Below, in pieces: positions 14,198 to 44,672 of a stretch of DNA of 64,000 bases; positions within the stretch are counted from its first letter, which is position 1, and the number at the start of each line of letters is the position of its first letter. Source of the stretch: Parvularculaceae bacterium (GTDB lineage Bacteria; Pseudomonadota; Alphaproteobacteria; Caulobacterales; Parvularculaceae); assembly GCA_036724105.1 (NCBI GenBank), contig DAIMGF010000008.1:56161-120160 (forward strand). Reading direction: 5' to 3'. Position numbers and translations under genes: made by a program. The notes below the pieces were generated by a model. The model had not been told where the DNA came from, ran no database searches, and worked only from the letters and a program-made list of their open reading frames with translations.

Positions 14198-14219
14198 ACG
14201 GAACTCCGTCGTCGACTTA

Positions 14220-16017: not shown

Positions 16018-16662
16018 ATGAAAAACTTGGTTGCGGCGGTAGCCGCGGGCGCAACGCTTCTGGCGGCGAATGCGCATGCCGAATACTTGGATTTCGTCGC
16101 AGAGGCCGCTGGCAATGAGCGCGGAGTTGCAGACGGAACGATCATTAACTTTGGAGGTCTTGACGTTACATTCACGTCGCTAAGCGCAGGCGCGTTTTTC
16201 GCGTATTTCGACGATCTGTCGAACGGAAAACCGGCGGGCCTAGGCGTGTGCGAGATCCTTATCGCGGGACCGGGATCGGCATGCGCCAACCCGGGAGATG
16301 ACAATATTCGTCTGGGCGATGCGGTTACGCTGACGTTCGGTGAAACCGTTGCGGTCAGCTCTTTTTCGTTCACCGACGCCGATCACAACGATCTGAATTT
16401 GAACAATACCAATACGTTGTTGATCGCGATTAATGATCCGAACGCATTCGTGCAATATACCTTCGCTGAGGCGGTTGCGCTGGTCATCGCAGGGGTCGAT
16501 CTGATCCGGTTTGCTTTCGACGATGCCGGGACCGGCGTTCAGTTTTACGTAAACGGGTTTGAGGCGACGCCGGTGCCGCTTCCTGCGGCGGCTCCTTTGC
16601 TGCTCCTGGGATTGGCCGGGCTCGGGCTTACTTCACGTCGTCGCCGTAAAAAACAGGCTTGA
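16018..16662 (+). CDS. VPLPA-CTERM (PEP-CTERM-like) sorting-domain protein, paralogue
   Basis: Signal peptide LLAANAHA-E and the C-terminus ATPVPLPAAAPLLLLGLAGLGLTSRRRRKKQA, a textbook VPLPA-CTERM signal. Confidence 0.85.
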   Translation: MKNLVAAVAAGATLLAANAHAEYLDFVAEAAGNERGVADGTIINFGGLDVTFTSLSAGAFFAYFDDLSNGKPAGLGVCEILIAGPGSACANPGDDNIRLGDAVTLTFGETVAVSSFSFTDADHNDLNLNNTNTLLIAINDPNAFVQYTFAEAVALVIAGVDLIRFAFDDAGTGVQFYVNGFEATPVPLPAAAPLLLLGLAGLGLTSRRRRKKQA

Positions 16663-18062: not shown

Positions 18063-21000
18063 CTAAAAATCCTTCTTCCAGTTCGCCGAGATGGTCTGGT
18101 CGCCGGTCTGTTCAATCTCCGTTTCCACCGTGATGTTGTCGGTGATTTCGTATTTGACGCGGACGGACCCGTTCTTGCCTTCCGCGTCCTGCGGAGACGA
18201 AAAGCCCGTCGGCCACATATTTCCCGACCGTCAGCGAGCCGCCGCCGTTTTCAGGGTCTATATCGACATTGAGAAGATCGAGGCCGACGGCGTTGCGCAG
18301 ACGACCGGTAACGCCTTCGCCGCCGAACGGGCCGATCCCGCTCAAGGACGCCAGCGCTTCGGCGATTTGAATAGACTCGAAAGGCGAGAGGTCCTGCGCC
18401 GGCTTGCCGAACAGGATGAGCGCCATCACGTCCTCCTGCGGCAGAGAGGGCGTGGACTCCAGCGACACCTGCGGCTCCTGCGCACGGCCGGAAATGACAA
18501 TTGCCGCCGTGACGCCGTCGCCGGCATCATGTTCGGCGCGGATGTCGAGAACCGGATTGTTGACGGACAGAAGATCGAACCGGATTGCGCCGCGCGTCAA
18601 ATCGAAACGCCGGCCCGAAAAATCGAGCCAGCCGCGTCTCAACGACAGATCGCCGACCACCACGGGTTGCTCGCGGCCGTTGACGACTGTGGCGTTCGCC
18701 GACCACTCGCTTTCAAGGCCGCGACCGCGAATGAAAATGCGGTCGTCGGCGGAAAGCTTGATCGTGTATTTGAGCGTTGAATTGCGTTCCGGCGTCAGCG
18801 TTTGCGGCGCAGCGCGCTCATCATTGTAAGCGACCACTTCGATATCCACCAGGCCGGTGCTTTCCGGCGTCACGATTTCCGCATCCATCTCGTCGATAAC
18901 GATGTCGCCGTTGGCTTCGAGCGCGTCGAACGGGCCGGAGACTTTCAGCGTTCCATTGGCGCGGACTTTGTTGATCGGGTGCGCAGCCAGTTCCGCATTA
19001 TCAAGCGTCACATCAAGATTGACGCGCGATGCATCGCCCAGCGTCAGGTCGCCGGTGAAAGTGATCGCATCATCGCGCGACTGGTCCGCACCGCGCGCGC
19101 CGCCCGTAAATGACACGACGCTTCCCCCGCTCTGGTATGTTGCGTTTGCTTCGGCATGCAAACCGGCGAGAGAGAACCCGGAGCCGAGTTCCGTATAGGC
19201 GCTTTCGGTCAGGTTGGCGCTGCCGGAAAGGTCCGGCGCGCTGGTGTCGCCGCCAAGGTTGAAATTCGCGGCGAGCTTTCCTTCCATGGTCTGCAATGTC
19301 GGCGGCAGATAGGCGGCGAGCGCCTGAATATCGCCGTCATAGCGGATGAAGCCGTCCAGTGGTCCTTCGGTGTTGATGGCGACTTTCGGCGCGCGCGTCA
19401 GCCTTGCTGGCAGAACGATGCGCATATCGATTTTTTCATCTGCGTTATCGTCCGTCAGGGTGATGGCGCCGCCGTCCCAGACGGCGTTGCCTGAAATGGA
19501 AGCTTCTTCCCGGTTCAACAAAAGCGAGCTCAGGCTGAAATCGGCGCGCGCCGGGATTTCTGCATTTGTATCAAGATCGAGCGTCATGGAAATCTGCCCG
19601 TCGGCGTTCGGAATATTCACGTTTTGCAACACGGCGTCCGCCCGCCAGCGCGTGGCCGAGATCGCACCGTCAAGCGCGATTGTTCCGCTGTCGCCATAGG
19701 CAAGGCGCAGGTTACTGACATTCACGCCGTCTTCGAGATTGATGCGCGCCGGTTCGGTAAGCCGCGCGCGGTTGTCAGCGATCAATGCTTCGAACTGAGA
19801 GAGCATGATGCCGGGAGCGCCGCGCAGCGCGACGGTTCCTTCGGCTCTGTAGTCAAGAATGTTTTCAATATTCGGCGCGGAAAAGCTGTCACCGGTAAGG
19901 CTGACATTGACGGCGCCTGGCGGGCCCTGCGCGGTCATCGCAAAACCTGAAACCGAAATATTCCGGACGCTCAGCTCGCCAGCATTGATGCTCAGGTTGT
20001 TGAGCGCGCCGTCGCGTGAAAGAACGCCCTTGATGGTTGCGTCGCCAGTGACGATGACGCCCGGCCACGGTTCCGCATCGTCTTCGCCGTTGAACGTCAG
20101 ATCAAGATTGGCCGTCTGCGGGCCGGGATTGAAATCGCCGGTTCCTTCAAGGCGAAATCCGCGGCCAGCATAAAGCAGCCTCGGCGCGCGGATGAGACCG
20201 CTATCCGATGACCGCAACTGCGCTTCAAGCCGCCGCGGCGCGCGGTTGCGTGCGGTTGCGAGAATATCGCCGGTCGGCAGCTTCGGCAGGCCCGCAAGTT
20301 CCGCTTTCACCGCCATGGGTGGCAGCGCGCTGTCGTTCATGCGCAGTTCCGGCGTTTCGAAATTTGCTATCGCGGTGAAACGGTCGAGCGGTCCGGAAAT
20401 GTTGAGGTCACCGGCGATGGCCCCTGTCGCCACGACCGACGCCGCCAGCGCACGGATGGCGTCAGGCGTCAGCGAGAAATCACCGTCAAGGTCGATATTC
20501 TTGTTAGCTGATTCGTAAGCGCCCGCGCCGCGGAAGGTTGCGCCGTCTGCGGTTTCCACCGACAGGTGATTTGCGCGGAAATGCGTGCCGAGATCAATGT
20601 CGATAACGCCGGAACCTTGAACGCCGGATGCGAGGACGGAAGGCAGGGCGGTGTTCTCTGCAAGCGTCAATGTCAGTTCGCCTATAAGTTTGCGCGCAAG
20701 GTCCGTGCGGCCGTTTTCGATTGAGATATCGGCAACCGGTCCGTCGACTGTCGCCATCAGTGCGTAGTCATTGCGCCGCCAGTTGAGTTCTGACGTGATC
20801 GTTGCCGTTTCGCCTAGATATGTCTGGATTTCCTGACGATAGCCTTCGGCAAAGGCGGCGTTCAGCGAGGACGTAAACTGATCGACTACGCCGCGTGTCG
20901 CCCTCCAGTTGATAACGCCGTCAATGGCGCCGACGGCCGACGTAAGCGATCTAACGGTGAGTTTTCCACCGCGTTTGTCGAAATCAAGCCGCGCGTCGAG

Positions 21001-21861
21001 CGATGCCGGCGCCGCCAGTTCCATAATATGCGCGAGCCGTTCGCCAGCCATGAAAGCGATATTGAGATCGGCGCCGGTAAAGTTTTCGAGATCGCTGGCG
21101 ATCGACAATTCAATTTCGCCATAATATCCGACAACGCCCGTTAGTTCGACCGTCGCGTCTTCAATCCCGCCGGCGCCTTTCGCATCGACCCGTAGCGGCC
21201 CATGCAGATCGAGCAAAGTGGCGATGACGCCTTCGATTTCGGCGACCACCTCAGCGTCAAGAAAGAATCGGTCCTCACGCGGCGCCTTTTCGAACGTGAT
21301 GTCCGCCTGATCGAATCCGCCGCTGCTGGTGAGCGCAAGACGCGCATAGATATCCGGCCCGTCGAGACGCAGCGATCCCGCGCCGTCGATCCGTTCCATC
21401 TTTCCGTTCACTGACGCCTGAAAATCGGTGATCTCGATGGTTTCGATGGAAAGCTTCGGCGCATTGATTGACAGGTCGATTTGCGCGCCTTCATCCTCTG
21501 GCTTTTCTCCCGGCGGCGGGTCGCGATTAAGCCGCGCGCCGGTGACCAACGCTTCGTCGATGACTATGCGCTTGCGGATAAGCGCGAGCGGCCGCCAGCG
21601 CAGTTCTAGCCTGTCGGCGGTGAGCCACGGACCTTGTTGGTCCTCGAGAGAGACGTTTTCGAGGATGACCAAGCCAGGCGGCGCGCCTTTGAGGGCGCCG
21701 ATATCCGCCTTGCTGTTGAGCGCGCGCCCGAGTTCCGCCTCAACGATTTCTTCCAGGAACTCCCGTCCCGGCGGCGTGTGAAACAGCCCGACCCAGGCGA
21801 TAATGACTGCCGCCATCAGCGTCGCTGCGATCATCCCGCATATGGTGAGGATTCGTTTCAT
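18063..21861 (-). CDS. tamB: translocation and assembly module protein TamB (DUF490), apparently frameshifted near 18190
   Basis: A protein of about 1250 aa with an N-terminal anchor and long beta-rich repeats, located downstream of tamA. The track ORF ends at 18112 after about 25 Arg/His-rich residues, whereas the adjacent frame continues to a TAG at 18063-18065 and encodes QDAEGKNGSVRVKYEITDNITVETEIEQTGDQTISANWKKDF, a typical DUF490 C-terminus. Confidence 0.8.
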
Positions 21862-23672
21862 CAGAATGGCTGTCCCAACGCGATATAGATCTGAAAATCG
21901 TTGTCGCTTTCACGCTTGTCGAGCGGAAAAGCGATATCGGCGCGGATCGGCCCGATCGGGGTCAGGTATCTGACGCCGCCGCCATAGCCGATGAAAAACT
22001 CATCGTTGAAATCCGGAATGGTGTCGGCGGAAATCGATCCGGCGTCGACAAAACCGGCGATCTGCAGGTTCTTGATCACTTTGACGCGCGTTTCGAAGGA
22101 ACTCTCGATCCGTGAAAGCCCGCCGATGGGATCGTTTTCCGCATCAAGCGGGCCCGCCTCCTGAAATCCGTAACCGCGCACCGATCCGCCGCCGCCGGCG
22201 TAATACCGTTTGTTGCGCGGCAAGGCGTCGAGTGAGTTGCCGAATGTCGCGCCAAGCGCGGAACGAACGGCGAGCGTCACGCGCTCGTCGCCGCCAAAGT
22301 GAACCCGCGCCCGCGCCGCGATTTCCGACTGCGTGAAACTGTCCGAGCCTGTGTAGGGCGTTACGGTCCACGACGCGCGAAATCCGCTGGTCGGATTCAA
22401 CAGATCGTTTTCCGAGTTCCAGATGACGGCGAGGGGCGTCGAAACGAAGTAGGTGCGATCCTCCATGCCGTCGGCGCGGATGTTTGATGTTTCAAGCGCG
22501 ATGGCAGCGCGCGTTTCGAGATTGTCGCCGATCCATTTTTTCGAAAGCCCGCCGGAAGTTTTCAACGAGCGCGCCTTGAATGCATCGGTGGTTTCGTTTT
22601 CAAATGCAGCGCTTGCAAACGCTTGCCCGTCGAGCCGCGGCATGGGGCGCGTAACGGTTGCGGTAATCGATTGTTCAAGTTCGGAACCACGCAATTCGAT
22701 ACGGGAGTTTTCGCCATGGCCGAAGACATTGCGGTGCTCAAAAAAGACGCGGCCGCCGGGCCCTTCATCGGTTGAATAGGAAACGCCGGCGCCGACGGTG
22801 CGCTGTTTTCTTTCTTCGACGCGCACGATGACAGGCGTCACGCCGTTTTCGTCCGGGGTTCCGGGCGAAATATCGATGGTCGAGAAGATGTTGGTCTCGC
22901 GCAGCTTGTCGTAATAGGTCGTCAGCTTCGACCGGTCGAACTCCTCGCCTTCCTGCCAGGTCTTCATGCGGCGGATGAACGATGCATCGGTTTTATCAGC
23001 ACCTTTGACTTTCGGCGGGCCGAACTTCGCCTTCGGTCCGCTGCGAAACACAAAAACGGCGCTTGCCTCGCCGGTTTCAAAGTTGGCGATGGCGCGGCGA
23101 TTGACGATCTCGGCGGACGGGTAGCCGCTTTCCCAAAGGACGTTCAGAAACGCCTGCTGGCGTGCGCGCAAGGCGGCGCCGTCCGCCGCGCCGTTTGTTT
23201 TGATGCCCGCATCGGCGAAAGTCGCCGGCCTGCCGTTCGCTTCGTCCTGATAGAGAATTTCATATTCGGTAATGCGGAACGCCGGGCCGGTATCGATCCT
23301 GAAAATGATCCGCGGCTTGGCGCCATCTTCCGCAGGAATGAGATCAAAGTCAGCTGTTCCTGAGTAAAAGCCCGCGGCCTTGAGCGCGTCGTTGAACGCC
23401 TCCACATCTCGCCGAGCCGCGCGGCGAAGCGCCGCGGCGGTGGGATATTCCCGAACGCCTTTCATGAGCTCGGAAATCATCTGCAACTTGTCGCGCAGGC
23501 CGTTGGAGGCGCCCTCGATGGACGCGGCGTAGCTGTCGGCGGCCTGGGCGGGGGCGGATACTTCCACACAAGCCAATGCTGCCGCGCTGGCGCACGCCGC
23601 AAATTTCCCAAAAAAGTCAGAGGCTTGCCGCCTTCTACGCAACATGGGTCTCTCAAATGACGCGCTTTTCAC
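21861..23672 (-). CDS. tamA: TamA (Omp85/BamA-family outer-membrane protein)
   Basis: Signal peptide ...SAPAQA-A, POTRA-like repeats and a C-terminal Omp85 barrel ending ...FQIYIALGQPF. The stop codon overlaps the tamB start by 1 nt. The GTG at 23672 has GGAG upstream; an alternative ATG lies at 23645. Confidence 0.85.
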   Translation of the reverse strand: MKSASFERPMLRRRRQASDFFGKFAACASAAALACVEVSAPAQAADSYAASIEGASNGLRDKLQMISELMKGVREYPTAAALRRAARRDVEAFNDALKAAGFYSGTADFDLIPAEDGAKPRIIFRIDTGPAFRITEYEILYQDEANGRPATFADAGIKTNGAADGAALRARQQAFLNVLWESGYPSAEIVNRRAIANFETGEASAVFVFRSGPKAKFGPPKVKGADKTDASFIRRMKTWQEGEEFDRSKLTTYYDKLRETNIFSTIDISPGTPDENGVTPVIVRVEERKQRTVGAGVSYSTDEGPGGRVFFEHRNVFGHGENSRIELRGSELEQSITATVTRPMPRLDGQAFASAAFENETTDAFKARSLKTSGGLSKKWIGDNLETRAAIALETSNIRADGMEDRTYFVSTPLAVIWNSENDLLNPTSGFRASWTVTPYTGSDSFTQSEIAARARVHFGGDERVTLAVRSALGATFGNSLDALPRNKRYYAGGGGSVRGYGFQEAGPLDAENDPIGGLSRIESSFETRVKVIKNLQIAGFVDAGSISADTIPDFNDEFFIGYGGGVRYLTPIGPIRADIAFPLDKRESDNDFQIYIALGQPF

Positions 23673-23913
23673 CGGACGCTCCGGCAGTGGCGATGATCTA
23701 CTCTAGATATGTTTCGCAGCACCCTGTCACGGCATGGTTAACCTTGTGCTGCGAAATGGCCGTTTTAAGGTTGTTTTAAAGCCCGCAACGCCTTATTCCA
23801 TCGGGATTTTCGGCGATTTTACCATCGCCAGTTCTGGCCGTTTTTCTAGTCGTAACGCCCAGACTGCGCTATGCCCCTCGTTCGGGTAAACAGGGCAAAG
23901 GGCGAATAATTCC

Positions 23914-25044
23914 ATGGCGCATCCGTTAAGCGGCGCAAATCTCGGTACGCTGGCGACCGTCGCAGGGCGTTCCGGCGCGCCGAGCCATGCCTTGCAAGGG
24001 GCGGCCATTGGCCTTGCCGCGCTCGGGCGCTGGCCGTTTTCGACAGTCGAAAAAATCGTCATGGAAAGCAAATTGCCGACGATTGAGGATATGCCGCCGC
24101 CTGTCTTCATCCTGGGCCATTGGCGGTCCGGCACCACCCATCTTTACAACATCATGTGCGAAAGCGGCGAGTGGGGGTACGTGCCGCCGGTCGCGACGGG
24201 CCTGCCCTGGGATCTGTTCGGCATCGCGAAAGTGTTCAGCCCGCTGCTTGAAAAGGCGCTGCCGGAACACCGCTTTATCGACAATATTCCGGTGACGCCC
24301 ACGAGCCCGCAGGAAGATGAGATCGCTATCGCGAATATGTCGGAAGTCTCGTTCTATCACGGGATTTATTTTCCGAAGGCGTTCGCGGAAAACGTAAAGC
24401 GCGGGCTTTTCTTCGACGGCTGTTCGACGGGCGACATCAGGAACTGGCGCAAGCAATTCACTTACTTTTTGCGCAAGCTTTACCTGCATCAGGGTGAAAA
24501 GCCGCTGTTGATCAAGAACCCGGTCTATACAGGCCGCTTCGCCATGCTGCGGGAAATGTTTCCGAACGCGAAATTCATCCACATTCACCGCAATCCATAC
24601 GACGTTTTCGTTTCCATGCGGAATTTCTATACGAAACTGTTGAAAGAGTTCGCGCTGCAAAGCTACGACCATGTAGATATCGATGAGGCGATCTTGAGTG
24701 TTTACGACCGGATGATGCGCGATTATGAGCGCGATGCGGCGGCGGTTCCCGCTGACCAGCTGGTGGAATTACGCTACGACGACCTCGACGCCGAGCCCAT
24801 TGCGGCGGTCCAGAAGGTATATGACGCGCTTGACCTGCCGGGGTTTGATGCGGCGAAAGATAAATTCGAGCGCTATCTTGCCTCGGTTTCCACATTCAAG
24901 AAGAATAAGTTCGACTATTCCGATGAAGCGGCCGCCAAAGTAGAGGCGCGTCTCGGCCATTTCATTGAAAAATGGGGATATCAGCGGCCCGGAAGAGGCG
25001 CTGACGACGATAGAGGGGCGCGTCATGGGGAAAACGCAGCTTAG
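23914..25044 (+). CDS. sulfotransferase family protein
   Basis: FILGHWRSGTTHLYN (5'-phosphosulfate-binding loop) and IHIHRNPYDVFVS (3'-phosphate-binding motif). Confidence 0.8.
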   Translation: MAHPLSGANLGTLATVAGRSGAPSHALQGAAIGLAALGRWPFSTVEKIVMESKLPTIEDMPPPVFILGHWRSGTTHLYNIMCESGEWGYVPPVATGLPWDLFGIAKVFSPLLEKALPEHRFIDNIPVTPTSPQEDEIAIANMSEVSFYHGIYFPKAFAENVKRGLFFDGCSTGDIRNWRKQFTYFLRKLYLHQGEKPLLIKNPVYTGRFAMLREMFPNAKFIHIHRNPYDVFVSMRNFYTKLLKEFALQSYDHVDIDEAILSVYDRMMRDYERDAAAVPADQLVELRYDDLDAEPIAAVQKVYDALDLPGFDAAKDKFERYLASVSTFKKNKFDYSDEAAAKVEARLGHFIEKWGYQRPGRGADDDRGARHGENAA

Positions 25045-26095
25045 GTTGGCGGCGGTGCTGGCGTTTGCAGGTCTTGCCGCCTGCAGCGCACGCGACGTCG
25101 GGCCGGCTAAATACGGAGCAAATCTGTGCCGGCATGTCAGCCTTCTGGATGATGTGACGCTCAAACCCATTCGCGGCGCAGAGGATCTGGCGCTCGATCA
25201 GGCGAACGGGCGCCTGTTTGTATCCGCCTATGACCGGCGCGCGGTTGAGAAAGCCGCCAGAAGCAGAAAACAAACGCCGCCGAGCGGCGGTGTTTACGCC
25301 ATTTCACTTGAAACGCTTTTTGATCCCGACACCGAAGAACTTTATGTCGGTTCTCTCGCGGCGCCGGGCGAGTTCGCCGGAGGGTTGCGGCCGCACGGCA
25401 TACATTACGACGCCGCCAATCACGAACTTATTTTTATCAACCGGACATATGCGCGCGAGGGCAGTAACTGGCGCATGACGCCAAAGCTTCAGCGCATCGG
25501 CGCCAATGGCGAAGCGTTTGTCGGCGTGCCGCAGGACTCGCCATGCGCGGCCAATGACGTAACCGTTGTCGATGGCGGCGTACTGACGACGTTCGATCAT
25601 GCATCATGCGGCATCGGCGGCGGTCTTGAGGATATCTTTCGCCTGAAGCGGAGTGGTTTTACTGATGAGAACGGCGCCGTATTCAACAAGGCGGCGTTTG
25701 CGAACGGGATCGCCAGTCTGCCAACCGGCGATATTGTTCTTGCAGCGACACGTGAGAACATGCTGCTTGTCATGGACAAGGACAGTCATGCGCCGACACA
25801 GCGCATCGAATTACCGGGCGGCCCAGATAACATCTCTGTTTCGTGGAACGGCACCATCATCGCCGCCGTTCACCCGAAGATGATGAAGCTTGCCTTGAAC
25901 CGGAAGCTTGGCTGGGGCCGGGCGCCATCGCGTATTGTGAAAGCCAACCCTGAAACCGGCATGATCGATATTCTGTTCAACGATTCAGAAGGCGAATTGT
26001 TCAGTGCGGCGACAGCAGCGATTGAAACGCCGCAGGGACTTGTCGCCGGATCGGTAACGGACGAGGGGCTGCTGGTTTGCCGGGCGCCGGCATGA
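25025..26095 (+). CDS. lipoprotein, six-bladed beta-propeller arylesterase/lactonase (PON/SMP-30-like)
   Basis: The ATG at 25025 overlaps the previous gene by 20 nt. The lipobox is FAGLAAC-S. IRGAEDLALDQANGRLFVSAYD resembles the PON N-terminal blade (GSEDL...G.AF.S). Confidence 0.65.
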   Translation: MGKTQLRLAAVLAFAGLAACSARDVGPAKYGANLCRHVSLLDDVTLKPIRGAEDLALDQANGRLFVSAYDRRAVEKAARSRKQTPPSGGVYAISLETLFDPDTEELYVGSLAAPGEFAGGLRPHGIHYDAANHELIFINRTYAREGSNWRMTPKLQRIGANGEAFVGVPQDSPCAANDVTVVDGGVLTTFDHASCGIGGGLEDIFRLKRSGFTDENGAVFNKAAFANGIASLPTGDIVLAATRENMLLVMDKDSHAPTQRIELPGGPDNISVSWNGTIIAAVHPKMMKLALNRKLGWGRAPSRIVKANPETGMIDILFNDSEGELFSAATAAIETPQGLVAGSVTDEGLLVCRAPA

Positions 26096-27081
26096 GCGAA
26101 CGCACGCTTGTCACTGGCGGCGCCGGATTTGTCGGCAGGCATCTCGTGGCGAAACTGCGTGCGCAAGGCGAGCGGGTGAGATCATTCGATCTCGCCAAGC
26201 CCGCCCATGAAGACGACATGCAAGGCTCTATCACGGACATGGACGCGGTTGTGGGCGCAATGGAAGGCGTTTCCACCGTGTTCCATCTCGCGGGAGACGC
26301 GCAGCTCTGGTCCCGCGACAACGCGCATTTCGACAGGGTCAATCGATACGGAACCAAATGCATTGTCGAAGGCGCCTTGAATGCGGACATTCGCAGGTTC
26401 GTTCACTGTTCGAGTTTGACAACGCTGGTCGGCAAATCGACGCCAATTGGCGTTTCGACTGCTGATGAAGACATCGTTCTCATTGGCAACGAAATGCTCG
26501 GCGCTTACCCGCATTCGAAACGCATCGCTGAGAAGGAAGTCGAAGACGGCGTCAAACAGGGGCTTGATGCTGTCATCGCCATTCCAACCGAGCCTTTGGG
26601 CGCCGGCGATGACAGCTTGACCCCGCCGACGCAGATGATTCTCGATTTCGCCAACGGGAGAACGCCCGCTTATATCGACTGCATGTTGAATTTCGTGCCT
26701 GTTGAAAGTCTGGCGGACGGTTTGATCGCCGCACGGGAGCGTGGCCGCCGCGGCAATCGTTACATACTCGGCGGCGAAAACATTCCCATGCAAAAATTGT
26801 TCGCCATGATTGAACAGGCGACCGGCCGTCCGGCGCCGAAGATGAAAATGCCATACTGGGCGGCGCTCGCCGCCGGTATTGTGGACACGAAACTTGTCGC
26901 CGCGCTCACGGGCAAGCCGCCGAAAGCGCCGCTGACGGGCGTGCGCCTCGCCGGGCGGCAGGTGTCGTTTTCTTCCGAAAAGGCGGCGCGCGAACTTGGC
27001 TGGCGAGCGGGCCCCGCCGAACCGGCGCTGAAAGAGATGCTCGACTGGGCGAAGGGTAAGGGACTGCTGAAAGCAGTTTAA
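26092..27081 (+). CDS. hpnA: NAD-dependent epimerase/dehydratase, hopanoid-associated HpnA-like
   Basis: ATGA overlap with the upstream stop. Carries TGGAGFVGRHL (Rossmann), YPHSK (the catalytic YxxxK) and GVRLAGRQVSFSSEKAARELGW, as in HpnA. It sits next to hpnB and hpnCDE. Confidence 0.7.
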   Translation: MSERTLVTGGAGFVGRHLVAKLRAQGERVRSFDLAKPAHEDDMQGSITDMDAVVGAMEGVSTVFHLAGDAQLWSRDNAHFDRVNRYGTKCIVEGALNADIRRFVHCSSLTTLVGKSTPIGVSTADEDIVLIGNEMLGAYPHSKRIAEKEVEDGVKQGLDAVIAIPTEPLGAGDDSLTPPTQMILDFANGRTPAYIDCMLNFVPVESLADGLIAARERGRRGNRYILGGENIPMQKLFAMIEQATGRPAPKMKMPYWAALAAGIVDTKLVAALTGKPPKAPLTGVRLAGRQVSFSSEKAARELGWRAGPAEPALKEMLDWAKGKGLLKAV

Positions 27082-27124
27082 GAGAACGTCATACCGCGGC
27101 ATCATATGCAAAAAGGATGCGCTT

Positions 27125-27985
27125 ATGAGTGTCGCAGAAGCATCGCCGGAAATTGATCAATGGCTTGGCGGCCGGCCTTTCGAGGACTGGCGCGCGCAGT
27201 TCGATCGCGACGGCTATCTGATTTTTGAAAACGTGTTGAGCGAAGCGCAGCTGACTGAAATCAGATCGGCGCTGGCGCCCTATCTCGATCAGAACATAAA
27301 GGGCCGAAACGAATTCGAGGGACACGATTCAAACCGTGTCTACGCCATGCTGGCGAAATCGCCGGTATTCGCTGATCTGGTGACGAATCCTTTGGCGCTG
27401 AAATTCGTTGAGGCGGATTTAGGCCCGGACTGCCTGCTCTCCGCCTGCCTCGCGATTAAGCTTCATCCCGGGGAGACGGCGCAACCCTGGCATTATGACG
27501 ACAGCCATTATCGCTGGCCGCGGCCCCGGCCATCGCTCGGTGTTTCAACCTTCTGGGCTATCGACGCAATGACTGAGACAAACGGCGCCACGGAAATCCT
27601 GCCCGGCAGCCATCTGTGGGTGGATGAATCTTTCGAAGGCGCGATCGCAACGGAAGACTTTAGCAGAGATAGCCGCCGCGAGGGCGATCCGGGCGCACGG
27701 CCTGACGCCATGAAAGCCGTTATGCCGGCAGGGTCGCTGATGCTCGCCAAAGGCACGCTCTGGCATCGCGGCGGCGCGAATGTCTCCGACGCGCCGCGGC
27801 TGATCATTACGCCGCAATATTGCCCGGCCTGGACGCGCCAGTTGGAAAATATGTTGCTTGCGGTGCCGCCGGAGGTCGTGAAAACCCTGCCGCCGCGCGT
27901 GCAGGAACTTATTGGCTATTCGATCTGTTCGCCGTTCATGGGGTATGTGGATGGACGCCACCCCAAGCGCCTGCTTGAGCGTTAA
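27125..27985 (+). CDS. phytanoyl-CoA dioxygenase (PhyH) family Fe(II)/2-oxoglutarate oxygenase
   Basis: The N-terminus FDRDGYLIFENVLSEAQL is typical of PhyH. WHYDD (an HxD-type iron site) and a later LWHRGGAN His/Arg motif are also present. Confidence 0.8.
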   Translation: MSVAEASPEIDQWLGGRPFEDWRAQFDRDGYLIFENVLSEAQLTEIRSALAPYLDQNIKGRNEFEGHDSNRVYAMLAKSPVFADLVTNPLALKFVEADLGPDCLLSACLAIKLHPGETAQPWHYDDSHYRWPRPRPSLGVSTFWAIDAMTETNGATEILPGSHLWVDESFEGAIATEDFSRDSRREGDPGARPDAMKAVMPAGSLMLAKGTLWHRGGANVSDAPRLIITPQYCPAWTRQLENMLLAVPPEVVKTLPPRVQELIGYSICSPFMGYVDGRHPKRLLER

Positions 27986-28085
27986 AAATCGCTCATTTAT
28001 ATGCGCTTTTTCGTGCGGTTTGCCGCATTCGTAATGCGGGTTTCAGTACTTATATACCTATGTGAAGCAGAGCGGAGACTGACCA

Positions 28086-28568
28086 ATGAAGTTTACAAAC
28101 ATCATTGCTGCTGTTTCGGTTGACGATGACCTATCGGACGGCGTTATCCGCGCCGCGCGATCTCTGGCGGAGCGCGATGGCGCGACATTACAGATCGTCA
28201 GCGCATGGCCGCTATTGAGCTCGACAATCCCTGCGTTCAGCGGCGAAGCGGCGGCCAATTCCGCCGTGGCGGCGGAAGCCATTACCCAGCGCAACCGCGA
28301 AGGCCGCAAAGCCAGCGAGCAGCGCCTGACGGAAATGACCAAACGGCTGGCCCCGGAGGCCAAAGCGGTTCTGGTGGATGGCGACCCTGCCGATGAAATT
28401 ACGCACTATGCGAAAGAGCAGGGCGCCGACCTGATCGTTACCGGTTCGCATCAGCGCGGGTTCTGGGAGACGCTTTTTCAGGGGAGTGCATCGCGCGACC
28501 TCGTTCGCGAAGCGCCGTGCGCGGTGTTTCTGGTGACGAAAGCCTTCGCTGAAACGATGCAGTCTTAA
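28086..28568 (+). CDS. universal stress protein (UspA family)
   Basis: NIIAAVSVDDD...GADLIVTGSHQRGFWETLFQGSASRDLVREAPCAVFLV is the Usp ATP-binding motif G-x2-G-x9-G(S/T). Confidence 0.85.
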   Translation: MKFTNIIAAVSVDDDLSDGVIRAARSLAERDGATLQIVSAWPLLSSTIPAFSGEAAANSAVAAEAITQRNREGRKASEQRLTEMTKRLAPEAKAVLVDGDPADEITHYAKEQGADLIVTGSHQRGFWETLFQGSASRDLVREAPCAVFLVTKAFAETMQS

Positions 28569-29716
28569 GAGTACGTCCGGCCTTTCCATTGTCCGCCTTG
28601 TCCTTGCCAATGTCTCAAGGCTGATGAAACTGTCATGGCGGTATAGAGCGCTGCAGCGACGGGTAGGAGCGCTGCCTCCCATGGTGCGCGATCATATAAT
28701 TTCAGCGTCGGCCAGTAGGTGTACGCCATCAGCGCGCAGGCAATGACGGCGTAAAACAGCGCCGCGAAATTCCAGCAAGCAAAGAATGTGAGGATAATCA
28801 GCGGCGCCGCAAGATAGATGAGCGCCATGCCGGCGACAGTCCCGGCGAGCAGAAGCGGCGAATAGTGAAGCTGCGCATAAGCCGTGCGCGCCACCATGTT
28901 CCAGATCGACGATAATTCCTGATTGTCGCGCTGGCTGACGGCCTCATCATCCGTGAGCCCCAGCCATATTTTTGTGGACGGCGTTGTATCCTTGATCGCT
29001 TTCGCGAGGGCGCAATCATCAATCAACGCGCCTTTGATGGTTTCCATTCCGCCGATTGCGTCAAGAGCGTTGCGACGCACGAGCATACATCCGCCCGCCG
29101 CCGCGGCGAGGTTGTCATCAGCATCGTTCGCCCGCGGGAACGGATAAAGCTTCTGAAAGAAATAGATGAACGCGGGAATCAGAAACGACGCCCATGGCCC
29201 GCGCGCATCGAGTTTCGCCATCAGGGATGTGAGGGCGAGATTTTCGTTCTCCGCCTTTGCGACCAGGCGCGCAAGCGTATCCGGGGCCAGCCGTATGTCT
29301 GCGTCGGTCAGCAATATATATTTGGCGCCGGGCGCCGCCTCGCGCGCGCGGGCAAGCCCGTTATGCACGGCCCATAACTTGCCGCTCCATCCTTCCGGCA
29401 GTTCTGGCACGGAAATACTTTCGAATGAATGGACGCCCTGCGCTGCGGCGGTCGCAATCTCTGCCGTCCCGTCCGTCGACCCGTCATCAGCGAGGATGAC
29501 GGAGAACTTGCCCGGATAATCCGCCGCCATGTGCGCGGCGATCACCTCGCCGATGGTTTCGGCTTCATCCCGGGCGGGGATGATAGCGACGATTTCGGGC
29601 CAGCTTTCGGGCGCCGGCGCATCTTTCAGACGCTCGGTGGCGCGCCAGAAGCGCCCATGGAGAAAAGTCAGCCAGCCCCAGGCTGCAAGCGATAAAAAGG
29701 CGATAAAAGTCAGCAT
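28565..29716 (-). CDS. hpnB: hopene-associated glycosyltransferase HpnB (GT2)
   Basis: An N-terminal TM segment followed by VAIIPARDEAETIGEVI...ILADDGSTDGT...LLTDADI. Both the architecture and the position next to hpnC fit HpnB. Confidence 0.8.
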   Translation of the reverse strand: MLTFIAFLSLAAWGWLTFLHGRFWRATERLKDAPAPESWPEIVAIIPARDEAETIGEVIAAHMAADYPGKFSVILADDGSTDGTAEIATAAAQGVHSFESISVPELPEGWSGKLWAVHNGLARAREAAPGAKYILLTDADIRLAPDTLARLVAKAENENLALTSLMAKLDARGPWASFLIPAFIYFFQKLYPFPRANDADDNLAAAAGGCMLVRRNALDAIGGMETIKGALIDDCALAKAIKDTTPSTKIWLGLTDDEAVSQRDNQELSSIWNMVARTAYAQLHYSPLLLAGTVAGMALIYLAAPLIILTFFACWNFAALFYAVIACALMAYTYWPTLKLYDRAPWEAALLPVAAALYTAMTVSSALRHWQGQGGQWKGRTYS

Positions 29717-29804: not shown

Positions 29805-30695
29805 ATGTCAACGACCGAAGATATGGCTGTAACGACCGGCCCGGCGGCGGAAACGCCCTCGGGCAAAGGCGCGAAGGATGAAAACTTTCCCGTCGGCTCG
29901 TTCCTGTTGCCAAAACGTCTGCGCCCCCATGTGGCGAAATATTACGCCTTTGCGCGAGCCATCGACGACATCGCTGACAATGGCGAATTGACGCCAGAAG
30001 AAAAAATCAAACGGCTCACGGCGTTTGACGCCGCGCTGAAGGGCGAGCCGGGTTACGGGGAAGAATACGAAAAAGCACATCACCTGCGCGAAAGCATGCG
30101 TGAAACTGAGGTGACGACCAAGCACGGCTCGGATCTCGTCGCCGCCTTTATCCTCGACGCAGAGAAAAACCGCTACGCAAACTGGAACGAGCTTCTCGGC
30201 TATTGCGAGCTTTCCGCCAACCCGGTCGGGCGTTACCTGCTCGATCTGCATGGCGAAGATAAATCCGGCTACCGCTATTCCGACGCGCTCTGTACCGTGC
30301 TGCAAATCGTCAATCATTTGCAGGATTGCGCCGACGACAAGCGCGAGCTTGACCGCGTTTATATCCTCACCGACTGGCTGGCGGAGGAAAACGCCGAGCT
30401 GCAAGACATCGACGGGCCCGCGCTTTCGGAAGGGCTGCGATGTGTTATCGACCGGATGCTCGATGGTTGTGAAGACCTGATGACGGATGCGCGCAAACTG
30501 CCTGCGGCGCTGAAGTCAAAATCACTTGCCATGGAATCGGCGGTGATCGTGCGCCTTGCCGAACGCTTAATCCGGCTTTTGCGTAAGGGCGATCCGCTGG
30601 CGTCGCGCGTCGCGCTTTCGAAAGTCGATTTCGCTTCTGCGGGCATTCGCGGCGCCGTTTCGGGATTTTTCGAGGCTGGCAGAGGCGTTGATTGA
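29805..30695 (+). CDS. hpnC: hydroxysqualene synthase HpnC (squalene/phytoene synthase family)
   Basis: ENFPVGSFLLPKRLRPHVAKYYAFARAIDDIAD and LQDCADD are the two Asp-rich SQS/PSY motifs. It is the first gene of the hpnCDE triad. Confidence 0.9.
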   Translation: MSTTEDMAVTTGPAAETPSGKGAKDENFPVGSFLLPKRLRPHVAKYYAFARAIDDIADNGELTPEEKIKRLTAFDAALKGEPGYGEEYEKAHHLRESMRETEVTTKHGSDLVAAFILDAEKNRYANWNELLGYCELSANPVGRYLLDLHGEDKSGYRYSDALCTVLQIVNHLQDCADDKRELDRVYILTDWLAEENAELQDIDGPALSEGLRCVIDRMLDGCEDLMTDARKLPAALKSKSLAMESAVIVRLAERLIRLLRKGDPLASRVALSKVDFASAGIRGAVSGFFEAGRGVD

Positions 30696-31585
30696 TGACT
30701 GCCGCACTTTCAATCTCGCCGGAGGAGGCGCGCCGTCACGCCTTTGAAACGGTGAAGCGTTCCAAAACGTCCTTCGGACCCGGTATGCGGATTCTGTCGA
30801 AGCCGCGCCGTGACGCGATGTACGCTGTCTACGCCTTTTGCCGCGAGGTGGACGACATCGCCGATGAAGGCGGAACGCGCGACGAAAAAATGGCGGCGCT
30901 GAAGGGCTGGCGCGAGGAAATCGGCCGGCTTTACGAGGGCAAGCCGGAATATCCGACAGGCGTTGCGCTCACCGAACCGGTTCGCGCCTTCAATCTCTCC
31001 AAAGATGAATTCATTTTGATGATCGAGGGGATGGAGTTGGATGCGGCTGGTCCCGTCATCGCACCGCCGCTCGAAACGCTTTTCGCTTATACGCGCCGGG
31101 TGGCCGGCGCGGTCGGCCAGCTTTCCATGCCGATCTTCGGCGCGCCGGCGGGAAAGGCGTCCGACGACTTTGCGATTTCACTTGGCGATGCACTGCAGTT
31201 CACGAATATTCTGCGCGATATTGAACAGGATGCAGACGAAGGCCGTCTTTATCTTCCCAAAGAGTTCCTTGAAAAGCATGGTTGTCCAATGACGCCCGCG
31301 GGTATTGTTAATGCGCCAGGCTTGCCAGGCGTGCGTGCAGAAATAGCGGCGATTGCGCGGGAAAAATTCGCCCGCGCCCGCGCGGCGCTCAAGCATCTGG
31401 ACTGGAAGGTGTTGCGCCCGGCATTGTTGATGATGGGCGTTTATGAGCGTTATCTCGACAAGATGACGGCGCGCGGATGGGACAACGGCCAGCCGCGCGT
31501 CATGATCCCCAAACACGAAAAGGCGATGATCGCCATGCGCTGGCTCGCCGCGCCGAAACTGACGAGAGCTGAGGCGCAACAATGA
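30692..31585 (+). CDS. hpnD: presqualene diphosphate synthase HpnD
   Basis: SFGPGMRILSKPRRDAMYAVYAFCREVDDIADE and NILRDIEQDADEGRLYLP. The start overlaps the hpnC stop (TGATG; the ATG is at 30695). Confidence 0.9.
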   Translation: MMTAALSISPEEARRHAFETVKRSKTSFGPGMRILSKPRRDAMYAVYAFCREVDDIADEGGTRDEKMAALKGWREEIGRLYEGKPEYPTGVALTEPVRAFNLSKDEFILMIEGMELDAAGPVIAPPLETLFAYTRRVAGAVGQLSMPIFGAPAGKASDDFAISLGDALQFTNILRDIEQDADEGRLYLPKEFLEKHGCPMTPAGIVNAPGLPGVRAEIAAIAREKFARARAALKHLDWKVLRPALLMMGVYERYLDKMTARGWDNGQPRVMIPKHEKAMIAMRWLAAPKLTRAEAQQ

Positions 31586-32862
31586 GCCGTATTCATATTA
31601 TCGGCGCCGGGCTTTCCGGTCTTGCAGCAGCGGTGCGCCTTATTGAAAACGACGTGAAGGTCACCGTCTATGAAGGCGCGGGGCAAGCGGGCGGGCGTTG
31701 CCGCACGTTTTATGACAAGCATCTCGAGCGTGAGATCGACAACGGCAACCACCTGATCATGTCTGGCAACAAGTCGGCGTTGTCTTATTTGAAACGCATT
31801 GGCGCCGAAGACCCGCTCACCGGCCCGCAATTCGCGATCTATCCGTTTGTCGATGTGCAATCTGGCAAGCGCTGGACCGTGCGCATCAATGAGGGGCCGA
31901 TCCCGTTCTGGGTGTTCGACAAACAATGGCGGGTGCCGGATACCGGCGTCATGGACTACGTCAAGGCGGCGGGGATTGCGTTCGCGGGTAATGACAAAAC
32001 AGTTGAGGACGTGGTCGACACAAAGAGCCCGCTTTATGAGCGCTTCTGGGAGCCGCTGACGCTGGCGGTGCTCAATACGACGCCGGCGAAGGGGCAGGCG
32101 AAACTGTTATGGCGGGTTATCCGCGAAACATTCCTGCTCGGCGGTCAGGCTTGCATCCCGCTGACCGCGCGCTCGGGGCTCGGCCATGCGTTTATCGACC
32201 CGGCAGTGAAATTCATTGAGCAAAATGGCGGCGTTGTACGTCTGGGCGCGCGGGTGCGCGGCGTCTGGATGGAGGGCGGCGAGGCCACGAGCCTCAACTT
32301 CGCTGACGAAACCGTCACGCTTGAAGAAGGCGACATGGTGATCTTCGCCATTCCGCCGACCCGGCTGAAAGATTTGTTGCCCGATATCGATCCGCCCGGC
32401 GACGACGCCAGTATTTTGAACATTCACTACCGGATGGCGAAGCCGGTCCCGACAAAGGCGCTCGGCGACGGGCCGTTCATCGGCATGATCGGATCGGACG
32501 GTCAGTGGGCGTTTGTTCGTGACGATGTCATAAGCCTGACGACGTCGGCGTCGAACGCGATTGGTACGGACGACCGGCCCAATGACGATGTGGTCGCAAA
32601 AATCTGGCGTGAAACGCAAGTGGCGCTGGACCTTGGCGATGAGGAATATGAGCGCGTACGCGTCATCCGTGAAAAGCGCGCAACGCCCGACCAGTCGCCG
32701 GAGGGCGCACGCAAGCGCCTCAAACCCGAGACGCAATGGCGCAACGTCTTCCTTGCCGGCGATCACATTGACACCGGCGTTCCCGCGACAATTGAAGGCT
32801 CGATAAGGTCGGGGGAGAAGGCGGCTGAGTTGGCGCTATCTTCTACAGCCAAAAGGTCATAG
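31582..32862 (+). CDS. hpnE: hydroxysqualene dehydroxylase HpnE (FAD amine-oxidase fold)
   Basis: IHIIGAGLSGLAAAVRL...VYEGAGQAGGRCRTF is the FAD dinucleotide-binding motif. ATGA overlap with hpnD. Confidence 0.9.
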   Translation: MSRIHIIGAGLSGLAAAVRLIENDVKVTVYEGAGQAGGRCRTFYDKHLEREIDNGNHLIMSGNKSALSYLKRIGAEDPLTGPQFAIYPFVDVQSGKRWTVRINEGPIPFWVFDKQWRVPDTGVMDYVKAAGIAFAGNDKTVEDVVDTKSPLYERFWEPLTLAVLNTTPAKGQAKLLWRVIRETFLLGGQACIPLTARSGLGHAFIDPAVKFIEQNGGVVRLGARVRGVWMEGGEATSLNFADETVTLEEGDMVIFAIPPTRLKDLLPDIDPPGDDASILNIHYRMAKPVPTKALGDGPFIGMIGSDGQWAFVRDDVISLTTSASNAIGTDDRPNDDVVAKIWRETQVALDLGDEEYERVRVIREKRATPDQSPEGARKRLKPETQWRNVFLAGDHIDTGVPATIEGSIRSGEKAAELALSSTAKRS

Positions 32863-32987: not shown

Positions 32988-33443
32988 TTGAAAGGGACTG
33001 TGGCGCATCATATATTTGGTGCGCTTTCTTTTATTCTTGGGATAGGATTCATAATTTTCGCCATTCTGGCAATGATAGGAGGTGTTCTGGATAAAGGATG
33101 GTATGCCCAAATTTTTGTGATTCTTATGATAGGGATGGGTGTTCTGTTTTTGTGGAATTTTAACTTCACTCATCTTGCACGATTTCGGTATCGTTCTGAT
33201 CGTTTTGAGTATTCTGCTCCATTTAGAAAGATTTCAGTGGCATGGAACGAAGTTTCTGAAATTAAAATGGGTACAAACGGACCGCAGATTATTACAGTCG
33301 AAGGCAAGGTAACATTCTCAAATTTACTACAAGGTTTTTATGGGTTGTTAGCTACAGCTCGCGAAAATGACATCAAGGTTCAAAATAGCCCTTATCTTAT
33401 GCAGCCCGGATCATTCACGCTTTTTGGAAAACGAATAAAGTGA
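32988..33443 (+). CDS. hypothetical membrane protein (2 TM + soluble C-terminal domain), AT-rich
   Basis: TTG start 6 nt after the small ORF. Two TM helices are followed by FRYRSDRFEYSAPFRKISVAWNEVSEIKMG..., which looks like a bacterial PH domain. Its stop overlaps the hpnG GTG (GTGA). Confidence 0.5.
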   Translation: MKGTVAHHIFGALSFILGIGFIIFAILAMIGGVLDKGWYAQIFVILMIGMGVLFLWNFNFTHLARFRYRSDRFEYSAPFRKISVAWNEVSEIKMGTNGPQIITVEGKVTFSNLLQGFYGLLATARENDIKVQNSPYLMQPGSFTLFGKRIK

Positions 33444-34192
33444 GTTTCATAGCTGTCATCTGCGGCCTGAAATCCGAGGCGGCTGCTGTTCGGGCAAGCG
33501 TCGATCAATCAAAAATCCGCATCGGTGTCTCCGGCGCCAACGCCGCGCGCGCTGAGGAGATTGCACGGGATTTTTGTGAGCAGGGCGCGAGCGCCATCAT
33601 TTCCGTGGGCGTTTCCGGCGGGCTCGATCCGGCGCTGAGGCCGGGCGATCTCGTGATAGGCGATATGGTAATTGCCGATGACGGCTCGGTTTATACGAGC
33701 GACCGGTATTTGCTTGCGACCATTCAATCCGCTCACCCCGGCGGAAGCCGGGGTCCAGAAAAAACTGGCAAGATGGATCCCGGCTTCCGCCGGGATGACC
33801 GGGATGGGTACAGATTTGTGAAACTCTTCGGCGCGGACGAAATTATCGACAGCACAATGAAAAAATCGGCGCTTTTTCATAATCACGGATGCGTCGCCGT
33901 CGATATGGAAAGCCATGGCGCGGCGCGGGCCGCGGCAAGGGCCGGCGCGCCATTCGCGGCCATTCGCGCCATCGCCGACCCCGCCGATCGCGCGCTGCCC
34001 GCCGCAGCGCTCAATGCTGTGGCGCCGGACGGCTCGACGCGCGTCTTCAAAACATTAGGGGCCGCATTGCGCGACCCCAGACAGTTTCCGGAATTGATGA
34101 AGCTCGGCGCCGACAGCGCCGCGGCGACGAAAGCCTTACGCCGCGACCTCGGCACGCTCTTTGGCGGCCTTTTTCTCAGCCTCGATCTTTGA
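33440..34192 (+). CDS. hpnG: hopanoid-associated nucleosidase/phosphorylase HpnG, carrying an in-frame repeat insertion
   Basis: VICGLKSEAAA...VGVSGGLDPALRPGDLV...VAVDMESHGAARAA...FAAIRAIADPADRALP matches HpnG (PNP/MTAN fold). Residues ~98-121 (AHPGGSRGPEKTGKMDPGFRRDDR) are encoded by a palindromic element. Confidence 0.85.
   Translation: MSFIAVICGLKSEAAAVRASVDQSKIRIGVSGANAARAEEIARDFCEQGASAIISVGVSGGLDPALRPGDLVIGDMVIADDGSVYTSDRYLLATIQSAHPGGSRGPEKTGKMDPGFRRDDRDGYRFVKLFGADEIIDSTMKKSALFHNHGCVAVDMESHGAARAAARAGAPFAAIRAIADPADRALPAAALNAVAPDGSTRVFKTLGAALRDPRQFPELMKLGADSAAATKALRRDLGTLFGGLFLSLDL
33731..33800. repeat. palindromic (REP/MITE-like) element inside hpnG
   Basis: Arms gctcaccccggcggaagccggggtccag (33731-33758) and tggatcccggcttccgccgggatgacc (33774-33800) form an inverted repeat. 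It belongs to the same family as the element at 37291-37370. Confidence 0.75.
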
Positions 34193-44668: not shown

Positions 44669-44672
44669 GCTT

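Follow-up and report, generated by a model that had tools for sequence, protein, structure and literature searches.

Hopanoids rank among the major membrane lipids of bacteria and serve as biomarkers in geology; the enzymology that follows ribosylhopane and the functions of HpnA and HpnB are open questions (PMC12583986, PMC5462960). HpnA and HpnB still had no assigned function in the 2025 literature, in agreement with a first-pass annotation of the sequence described here, and in a published survey no genome without hpnH carried hpnA (PMC12583986). The enzyme that acts on ribosylhopane is unknown; HpnA has been a suspect but seems dispensable for bacteriohopanetetrol synthesis in Burkholderia (PMC5462960); ribonolactone-type hopanoid intermediates have been discussed as well (PMC4263297). 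In the sulfomenaquinone pathway encoded by cyp128-stf3, a dedicated hydroxylase first modifies an isoprenoid chain, and the sulfotransferase (ST) Stf3 then sulfates the hydroxylated product. The locus described here lies in a 64,000-nucleotide stretch of contig DAIMGF010000008.1 (the window) from a marine, Hyphococcus-like member of the Parvularculaceae. It is an operon in which an HpnA-like short-chain dehydrogenase/reductase (SDR) is coupled to a 3'-phosphoadenosine-5'-phosphosulfate (PAPS)-type ST and a lipoprotein with a predicted paraoxonase (PON) fold. The operon is restricted to the Parvularculaceae, and we tentatively suggest that it tailors a membrane lipid, the likeliest target being the polar C35 end of a bacteriohopanepolyol (BHP). 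It comprises four open reading frames (ORFs).

23914-25044, plus strand: ORF1, 376 amino acids, sulfotransferase
25025-26095, plus strand: ORF2, 356 amino acids, lipoprotein with a predicted PON fold, ATG at 25025
26092-27081, plus strand: ORF3, 329 amino acids, HpnA-like SDR
27125-27985, plus strand: ORF4, 286 amino acids, PhyH-type oxygenase

The first 20 nucleotides of ORF2 overlap the end of ORF1 and its start is preceded by the sequence GAGGGG; the ATG of ORF3 lies within an ATGA at 26092-26095 that overlaps the ORF2 stop codon; and the 43-nucleotide gap before the ATG of ORF4 contains an AAGGA ribosome-binding site. The coordinates, overlaps and gap from which the first-pass annotation had deduced a four-gene operon are exact, and the motifs that it quoted were all found (HWRSGTTH and RNPYDVFVS in ORF1; TGGAGFVG, YPHSK, and FSSEKAARELGW in ORF3). 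The architecture is therefore real and it is conserved, but the conserved module consists of three genes, with ORF4 as a clade-specific addition.

The comparison set comprised 34 other genomes, all from the Parvularculaceae/Caulobacterales, and 40 loci (L001-L040) were fetched and mapped by local tblastn. An alignment of ORF2 scanned against one genome per GTDB species gave 32 of these loci, and the others came from look-ups of individual proteins. The 32 loci belong to Parvularculaceae or to unclassified Caulobacterales, Alphaproteobacteria, or Pseudomonadota metagenome-assembled genomes, with L032 (26% identity) as a distant outlier. The gene order ST, lipoprotein, SDR holds in all of the 34 other genomes where the contig is long enough, and for this reason ORF1-ORF3 are considered to be real genes and not chance ORFs. 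Amino acid identities of the orthologues are 63-88% for ORF1, 42-68% for ORF2, and 55-76% for ORF3; the ST is thus the most conserved gene of the three, and roughly a third of its positions are invariant. ORF1 and ORF2 either overlap or are no more than 35 nucleotides apart wherever both ends can be placed, and the ATGA overlap of ORF2 and ORF3 is found in at least 13 loci. The conserved unit is this triad. Of the 32 loci that extend far enough upstream, 31 have a divergent tamA gene before the ST, the exception being L025; of the 31 that extend far enough downstream, 27 have hpn genes adjoining the triad, with the hpn block inverted in L023, L024, and L030. The flanks have been rearranged at least five times, with every breakpoint located between the SDR gene and the hpn genes. 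The triad is restricted to one family and physically linked to hpn genes in it. It is highly improbable that these genes are neighbors with unrelated functions and no shared pathway: ORF4 and the universal stress protein (Usp) gene that follows it show that the region accepts insertions, whereas the triad has kept its order and its overlapping stop and start codons despite the flank rearrangements and the divergence of ORF2 to 42% identity.

ORF1 matches Pfam Sulfotransfer_3 (PF13469) with 114.3 bits (1.3e-32; cutoff 27) and Sulfotransfer_1 with 44.5 bits (cutoff 22). Its 5'-phosphosulfate loop, GHWRSGTTH (residues 68-76, with HWRSGTTH at 69-76), is invariant in alignments of 17 and of 34 sequences, and in the 3'-phosphate motif RNPYDVFVS (residues 226-234) six of the nine residues (Arg226, Asn227, Pro228, Val231, Phe232, and Ser234) are invariant in the same alignments. 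The structural model is of moderate quality (pLDDT 67.9), and the top 50 Foldseek matches to it are all sulfotransferases, including Stf1 (1.5e-7) and the ST domain of CurM (4e-7). The Pfam match, the two PAPS motifs, and the fold thus bear out the first-pass identification of ORF1, which from its sequence is a PAPS-dependent sulfotransferase. The protein is predicted to be cytoplasmic, being free of transmembrane segments, and begins with a conserved extension (MAHPLSGA..GTL) at its N terminus.

The relatives of ORF1 in sequence and fold are remote and include mycobacterial Stf1 and Stf9, the ST domains of CurM and olefin synthase (OLS), and tyrosylprotein sulfotransferases. The nearest of them in both respects are PDB entries 2zq5 and 2z6v, from the mycobacterial family of lipid-sulfating enzymes, and two ST homologues have been named after Stf3 by the automated annotation of the Joint Genome Institute, which favors a lipid acceptor. 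ORF1 is just 14-16% identical to the mycobacterial Stf proteins, and the Stf3 name is an automated assignment. The occurrence of a hydroxylase gene with the ST gene parallels the cyp128-stf3 pair, but the hydroxylase in the present operon is a 2-oxoglutarate (2OG) oxygenase and not a P450 and is absent from most of the Parvularculaceae.

A mechanistic variant is that the ST is an activating enzyme, with a transient sulfate driving elimination, ring closure, or substitution on a lipid side chain. The OLS (4gox, 1.8e-5) and CurM (4gbm, 4e-7) domains are among the nearest relatives, the fold matches also take in retinol dehydratase (1x8k) and LGS1 (22ga, whose entry title refers to sulfation-assisted ring formation), and the hydrolase encoded downstream in the operon could process the product. 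These matches are comparably remote (14-17% identity, with a model pLDDT of 68) and share the PAPS-binding motifs with ORF1; Stf1 and Stf9, whose family is associated with stable sulfolipids, match equally well or better. ORF1 is moreover a stand-alone protein, in contrast to the CurM and OLS domains, with no polyketide synthase, thioesterase, or CurM-type partner in its context and no sign of an elimination step. We regard the activating role as improbable. The presence of tyrosylprotein sulfotransferases among the fold matches raised the alternative that ORF1 sulfates a tyrosine of the ORF2 lipoprotein; this was judged unlikely because ORF1 is predicted to be cytoplasmic and ORF2 to be exported by the Sec pathway. 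We know of no precedent for a cytoplasmic ST that modifies a Sec-exported lipoprotein.

ORF2 begins with a signal peptide, followed by a lipobox (LAAC) with the lipidated position at Cys20. No Pfam family, including Arylesterase, was matched at E ≤ 10 by any of 18 members of the ORF2 family, and a sequence search of the PDB with ORF2 gave no match; its fold has therefore been identified by structure prediction only. The AlphaFold2 model (pLDDT 87.4, pTM 0.86) is a six-bladed β-propeller, for which the ten best Foldseek matches in the PDB are all serum paraoxonase-1 (PON1), with E values of about 1e-15 and TM-scores of 0.68-0.75 (2e-15 and 0.70/0.75 for the best). The next group, strictosidine synthase and the lactonase Drp35, follows at about 1e-10, some 1e5-fold worse. 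The predicted structure thus upholds an earlier guess, made from the sequence, of an arylesterase/PON-like propeller. Alignment of ORF2 with PON1 by hhalign is limited to the C-terminal half (probability 23%, E 9e-4).

When the ORF2 family was aligned by MAFFT with human PON1, PON1 residues Glu53, Asp54, His115, Asp183, and Asn224 corresponded to Glu53, Asp54, His124, Asp191, and Asn227 of ORF2, and Asp269, Asn270, His285, and Cys353 to Asp268, Asn269, His283, and Cys352, all invariant or nearly so. Among these, the residues that correspond to the PON1 calcium ligands Glu53, Asn224, Asp269, and Asn270 and to the structural-calcium residue Asp54 are invariant. The further ligand Asn168 and the structural-calcium residue Asp169 were misaligned by the program, and the invariant Asn177-Asp178 of ORF2 is a plausible counterpart; PON1 His184 aligns with His192 of ORF2, which is not conserved. 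ORF2 is probably a Ca2+-dependent lactonase or esterase on the periplasmic side of the membrane surface, as judged from its model. PON1 is its best structural match and both act as lipid-surface proteins, PON1 being held on high-density lipoprotein by an N-terminal helix and ORF2 by its lipid anchor, but the two are only 19% identical and ORF2 is a bacterial protein, exported through its Sec signal and lipobox and encoded in a biosynthetic-looking operon. The modeled fold is that of an interfacial lactonase for lipophilic substrates, which, together with the lipid anchor, would suit an enzyme that acts on a membrane lipid.

Homologues of ORF2 are confined to the Parvularculaceae. The sole relative outside the family, at 382-3082 of L032 (26% identity), overlaps the 3' end of a gene for an MsbA-like ABC exporter, an arrangement which is a possible hint that exported lipids are substrates of distant PON-like proteins as well.

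ORF3 matches the NCBIfam HpnA model (TIGR03466) with 303 bits over nearly its full length (residues 4-324 of 329 against profile positions 2-325 of 327) without reaching the cutoff of 367.65. In second place among the NCBIfam families is SdmB, a sterol demethylase reductase, with 140 bits, and GalE and others score below 40; the Pfam assignment is Epimerase/3Beta_HSD (3Beta_HSD, 7.5e-21). The first-pass annotation had called ORF3 HpnA-like, and this stands to the extent that HpnA is the best model by a factor of two and that ORF3 is not a generic dihydroflavonol-reductase-like SDR; it is qualified by the score below the HpnA cutoff. HpnD (272 bits; cutoff 279) and HpnG (178 bits; cutoff 187) of the window are also slightly below their cutoffs, which fits a deep-branching lineage, but ORF3 falls further below. 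The ten nearest outgroup clusters, taken from a search of 1.8 billion cluster representatives followed by a neighbor-joining tree, score 272-343 bits on HpnA and are likewise below the cutoff. The best PDB match of ORF3 is 3wj7 (3e-50), and its catalytic motifs are conserved in 33 orthologues. From these data ORF3 is classed as an HpnA-like NAD(P)-dependent extended SDR, predicted to be cytoplasmic.

In most genomes the ORF3 gene stands beside a bona fide hpnB (NCBIfam HpnB, TIGR03469; 494 bits in the window), in the classical hpnA-hpnB position. It differs from described hpnA genes in its translational coupling to the ST and the PON-fold lipoprotein. In the complete 3.3-Mb chromosome of L033 the hpn cluster, which has hpnB but neither hpnA nor the squalene-hopene cyclase (SHC) gene shc, is about 380 kb from the triad. 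The triad and an hpn cluster thus co-occur in this chromosome, and because this cluster has no other hpnA, no HpnA-like gene besides the SDR of the triad was seen among the examined loci.

Pairs of an NAD(P) oxidoreductase and an adjacent Ca2+- or metal-dependent propeller hydrolase are generally known from lactol oxidation, as in xylose dehydrogenase with xylonolactonase and in enzymes of the SMP30/gluconolactonase type, and in L017 and L018 a sugar dehydrogenase of the GFO/IDH/MocA type is added to the operon. The propeller protein described here differs from those in that it is exported and held by a lipid anchor, apart from the cytoplasmic SDR, and a simple cytoplasmic dehydrogenase-lactonase pair was rejected on this ground.

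If the operon tailors a BHP, the substrate would be either the ribosyl/polyol side chain that HpnH and HpnG form or a sugar attached by HpnB. In the cytoplasm, the HpnA-like SDR would carry out an NAD(P)-dependent redox step on a ribosyl lactol, polyol, or sugar, one option being conversion of a lactol to a lactone as in ribonolactone-type BHPs, and the ST would move sulfate from PAPS to a hydroxyl; in the Hyphococcus clade only, ORF4 would add a hydroxyl. After export, for which the nearby hpnN is a candidate, the lipid-anchored PON-fold hydrolase would use Ca2+ to open a lactone or ester at the membrane surface on the periplasmic side. The sulfation, hydroxylation, and lactone opening of a BHP that had been proposed earlier for this operon are plausible chemistry. 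The more specific proposal, that the product is a sulfate ester of a C35 BHP or of its ribosyl or glycosyl head group, which the PON-fold lipoprotein remodels after export, must be considered unlikely.

ORF4 matches Pfam PhyH (PF05721) with 102 bits (7.5e-29; cutoff 22), and the metal and 2OG site His123-X-Asp125, His214, and Arg225 (HxD...H...R) is intact and invariant in 15 orthologues, so that ORF4 is, as had been supposed, a PhyH-type Fe(II)/2OG oxygenase. Its relatives in the PDB (DhiD, SptF, KanJ, PrhA, and AusE, about 1e-15) act on terpenoid, steroid-like, and aminoglycoside scaffolds. The gene is present in L001-L014 (except L006), L031, and L039 and is not found in L015-L030, L033, and L038. 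ORF4 and the Usp gene, which co-varies with it, are accessory and belong to the Hyphococcus clade only.

The slot between the SDR gene and hpnB, in which ORF4 and the Usp gene lie, is variable. It holds the GFO/IDH/MocA dehydrogenase gene, within the operon, in L017 and L018 (12017-13042, plus strand), a PIG-L de-N-acetylase and an esterase in L028 (12064-13867, minus strand), a second sulfotransferase in L011 (12961-14163, minus strand), and an AHSA1-like protein in L003 (8558-9052, minus strand); in L038 a Lipocalin_2 gene is found upstream of the ST (19493-20101, minus strand). The second sulfotransferase of L011 was examined as a duplicate of ORF1 and rejected, its identity of 22% marking it as a distant paralogue. 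Such a gene content is reminiscent of a biosynthetic cluster in which a variable region supplies tailoring enzymes for the sugar or polyol head group of a lipid.

The nature of these gene products also bears on the possibility that the operon serves to degrade or detoxify exogenous molecules or to quench signals, for example with ORF2 as a periplasmic PON-like hydrolase of acyl-homoserine lactones or lipophilic lactones and with an SDR and an ST that modify steroids or terpenoids, and has no connection with the lipids of the cell itself. Bar-Rogovsky and colleagues are said to have reported in 2013 that bacterial PON homologues are homoserine lactonases. ORF3 resembles sterol enzymes of the 3β-HSD/NSDHL type, through its 3Beta_HSD match and through PDB 6jkg (6.7e-13), and the terpenoid and steroid scaffolds of the ORF4 relatives point the same way. 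The operon behaves, however, like a housekeeping unit, with a highly conserved ST that is fixed as a single copy beside core envelope genes in every genome, and no transporter, regulator, or catabolic genes accompany it; such a role is accordingly hard to credit.

The genes that surround the operon in the window are as follows.

18112-21861, minus strand: tamB, outer-membrane translocation and assembly module
21861-23672, minus strand: tamA, divergent from the operon
23673-23913, no strand: intergenic region between tamA and the ST gene, presumed location of the operon promoter
27976-27995, plus strand: weak terminator-like hairpin at the ORF4 stop codon, which may mark the end of the operon
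28086-28568, plus strand: Usp gene (Pfam Usp, 79 bits), outside the core
28565-29716, minus strand: hpnB, glycosyltransferase of family GT2, convergent with the operon (HpnB cutoff 379 bits)
29805-32862, plus strand: hpnC-hpnD-hpnE, squalene from farnesyl diphosphate (FPP) (HpnC 269 bits, cutoff 250; HpnD as above; HpnE 351 bits, cutoff 283)
33440-34192, plus strand: hpnG, C35 side-chain formation
34136-35290, minus strand: hpnH, C35 side-chain formation (522 bits, cutoff 225)
38705-39334, minus strand: MlaC/HpnM-like gene
39677-42247, minus strand: hpnN, hopanoid transporter of the resistance-nodulation-division type (HpnN 781 bits, above cutoff)

The complete order is tamB/tamA, the operon, the Usp gene, hpnB, hpnCDE, a small membrane ORF, hpnG, hpnH, ispH, an ORF without assignment, the FPP synthase gene, the MlaC/HpnM-like gene, hpnN, and ast genes. 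A promoter scan of the tamA/ST intergenic region gave no sigma-70 consensus site, and the hairpin is weak evidence for the operon end because terminator-like sites in this region are no commoner than in shuffled sequence. The hpn genes had been described as following the operon directly; they do adjoin it, but the Usp gene stands between ORF4 and hpnB, and with hpnB and hpnH on the minus strand they are not simply downstream of the operon in one transcription unit. Pfam and NCBIfam scans of the remainder of the window found no cysDNC-type sulfate activation genes and no sulfatase genes, and an Rfam scan of the window gave zero matches.

The scores of HpnB, HpnC, HpnE, HpnH, and HpnN all exceed their cutoffs, and the main caveat in calling this neighborhood a hopanoid locus is the missing shc in the window and loci that were searched. 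The hpn clusters of the Parvularculaceae in loci L001-L040 (hpnB, hpnCDE, hpnG, hpnH, ispH, the FPP synthase gene, the MlaC/HpnM-like gene, and hpnN) all lack it. In the window there is no ORF of 600 or more residues with SHC features, and no shc lies between hpnE and hpnG; in the two loci that complete the set of 40 no SHC Pfam domain was found among the called genes. The HpnH of Amphiplicatus metriothermophilus is annotated in NCBI, and a 2026 preprint places SHCs of Parvularculaceae at the root of the SHC tree. A text search of the supplements of PMC12583986 gave no match on shc in Hyphococcus. If these genomes are truly without SHC, the enzymes of the operon, together with HpnH and HpnG, would act on a non-hopanoid lipid derived from squalene.

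The gap between hpnE and hpnG, where shc is located in many bacteria, is filled in the window by a gene at 32988-33443 (plus strand) for a predicted membrane protein of 151 residues that belongs to no family and is poorly conserved, with a homologue only in L011 (47% identity). This ORF and the one at 36567-37244 were considered as hidden cyclases and rejected since they match no family and are not cyclase-like, and a 652-residue ORF upstream of the ST in L025 was also found not to be an SHC.

Several observations weigh against a BHP as the substrate. (i) The enzymes themselves are distant from characterized ones. ORF1 is 14-17% identical to its best fold matches; five ORF3 orthologues from other clades score 269-322 bits on HpnA, so that ORF3 and its orthologues are all below 367.65; and in ORF2 the His115-His134 dyad of PON1 is not matched, as His115 corresponds to His124, conserved in at least 90% of the sequences, and His134 to the invariant Arg140. 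With ORF2 exported and ORF3 cytoplasmic, the proposed sequence of reactions also needs an export step. (ii) A tblastn search of the window and 38 loci (about 0.7 Mb) with the SHC of A. acidocaldarius gave only noise (E > 6), and among the genera in which a PSI-BLAST survey of 2025 records no shc are Hyphococcus, Marinicaulis, and Amphiplicatus, although they encode HpnH; hopanoid production by these bacteria is thus itself putative. (iii) The association with hpn genes is incomplete. In L026, L027, L029, and L033 the triad is followed by housekeeping genes, and a 3.72-Mb contig of another genome has an hpn cluster without a triad beside it. Linkage of the triad to tamAB is of about the same strength as its linkage to hpn genes, and the hpn adjacency may therefore be inherited family synteny. 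The attachment to a hopanoid locus that the first-pass annotation had proposed is thus valid as adjacency in most loci and is qualified by the constancy of tamAB, the distance in the L033 chromosome, and the missing cyclase.

Many of these observations would suit an operon whose target is an envelope component other than a hopanoid, for instance a sulfated glycolipid, lipopolysaccharide (LPS) or lipid A, or another outer-membrane lipid, with the hpn adjacency inherited and tamAB as a possible partner. The divergent tamA/ST arrangement is kept even in the four loci without adjacent hpn genes, every breakpoint separates the SDR from the hpn genes, the SDR is below the HpnA cutoff, and no shc was seen. 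Rhizobia sulfate LPS and Nod factors through LpsS, NodH, and NoeE, and alphaproteobacteria thus modify envelope glycoconjugates in this way; ORF1 has a very weak match to NoeE (E 0.0045). On the other side, the triad of L025 has lost tamA yet keeps the hpn genes, which counts against a partnership with tamAB, and TamAB is near-universal in Proteobacteria while the triad is found in one family only. The nearest curated family of the SDR is HpnA and not a nucleotide-sugar enzyme such as GalE, and the neighborhood contains no glycan-assembly or lipid A genes. We hold the envelope alternative to be somewhat unlikely.

The four superfamilies, the hpn context, and the position of an HpnA-like gene beside hpnB were known already. 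What is new is the fixed coupling of the HpnA-like SDR to an ST and a PON-fold lipoprotein, its occurrence in one marine alphaproteobacterial family, and the variable tailoring slot. The earlier view that no sulfotransferase is among the described hopanoid tailoring enzymes is in accord with our literature search, which found no paper on sulfated hopanoids and none on this operon; searches on the polar lipids of Hyphococcus and on bacterial PON lactonases found nothing usable. Two genomic surveys of hopanoid genes (PMC12583986; bioRxiv 10.1101/2025.07.29.667474) do not mention coupling of an HpnA-like SDR to an ST or lipoprotein. The operon supplies the HpnA-like enzyme with partners that can be tested, and the product predicted from it is a sulfated or lactone-derived BHP. 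Such a sulfated BHP, if it is made, would represent a hitherto unreported class of lipid, one easily overlooked by BHP methods based on positive-ion detection or acetylation, and ORF2 would add a bacterial, lipid-anchored member linked to biosynthesis to the PON fold, whose native roles in bacteria are poorly known. The lack of shc in the hpn clusters of the Parvularculaceae matters, in addition, for the use of hpn genes as predictors of hopanoids.

Some further features of the window and the loci were recorded. The plus-strand ORF at 36567-37244, between ispH and the FPP synthase gene, has no Pfam match and encodes a C-terminal DnaJ-like CxxCxGxG zinc-finger motif; it is likely to be the gene at this position, the minus-strand ORF at 36440-37192 having been rejected as a spurious frame, and L035, L037, and L040 also have genes without Pfam matches at the equivalent position. 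In the 3.3-Mb chromosome of L035, hpnC and hpnD are fused into a single SQS_PSY gene of 607 codons (13186-15009, minus strand), and gene calling in the related contig L036 gives pieces of 450 and 105 residues. An M20 hydrolase gene and the arginine succinyltransferase pathway (astA, astD, a glyoxalase-like gene, and astB) directly follow hpnN at 42285-48285, and the M20-astA arrangement is also found beside hpnN in L037. On the other side of the operon, a gene at 15943-16662 (plus strand) encodes a small protein with a PEP-CTERM sorting motif of borderline score (19.4 bits against a cutoff of 20.7), and the nearby ORFs at 12142-14819 and 15041-15823 belong to no Pfam family. In L039, a cytochrome P450 gene (2842-4059, minus strand) is located immediately past tamB.

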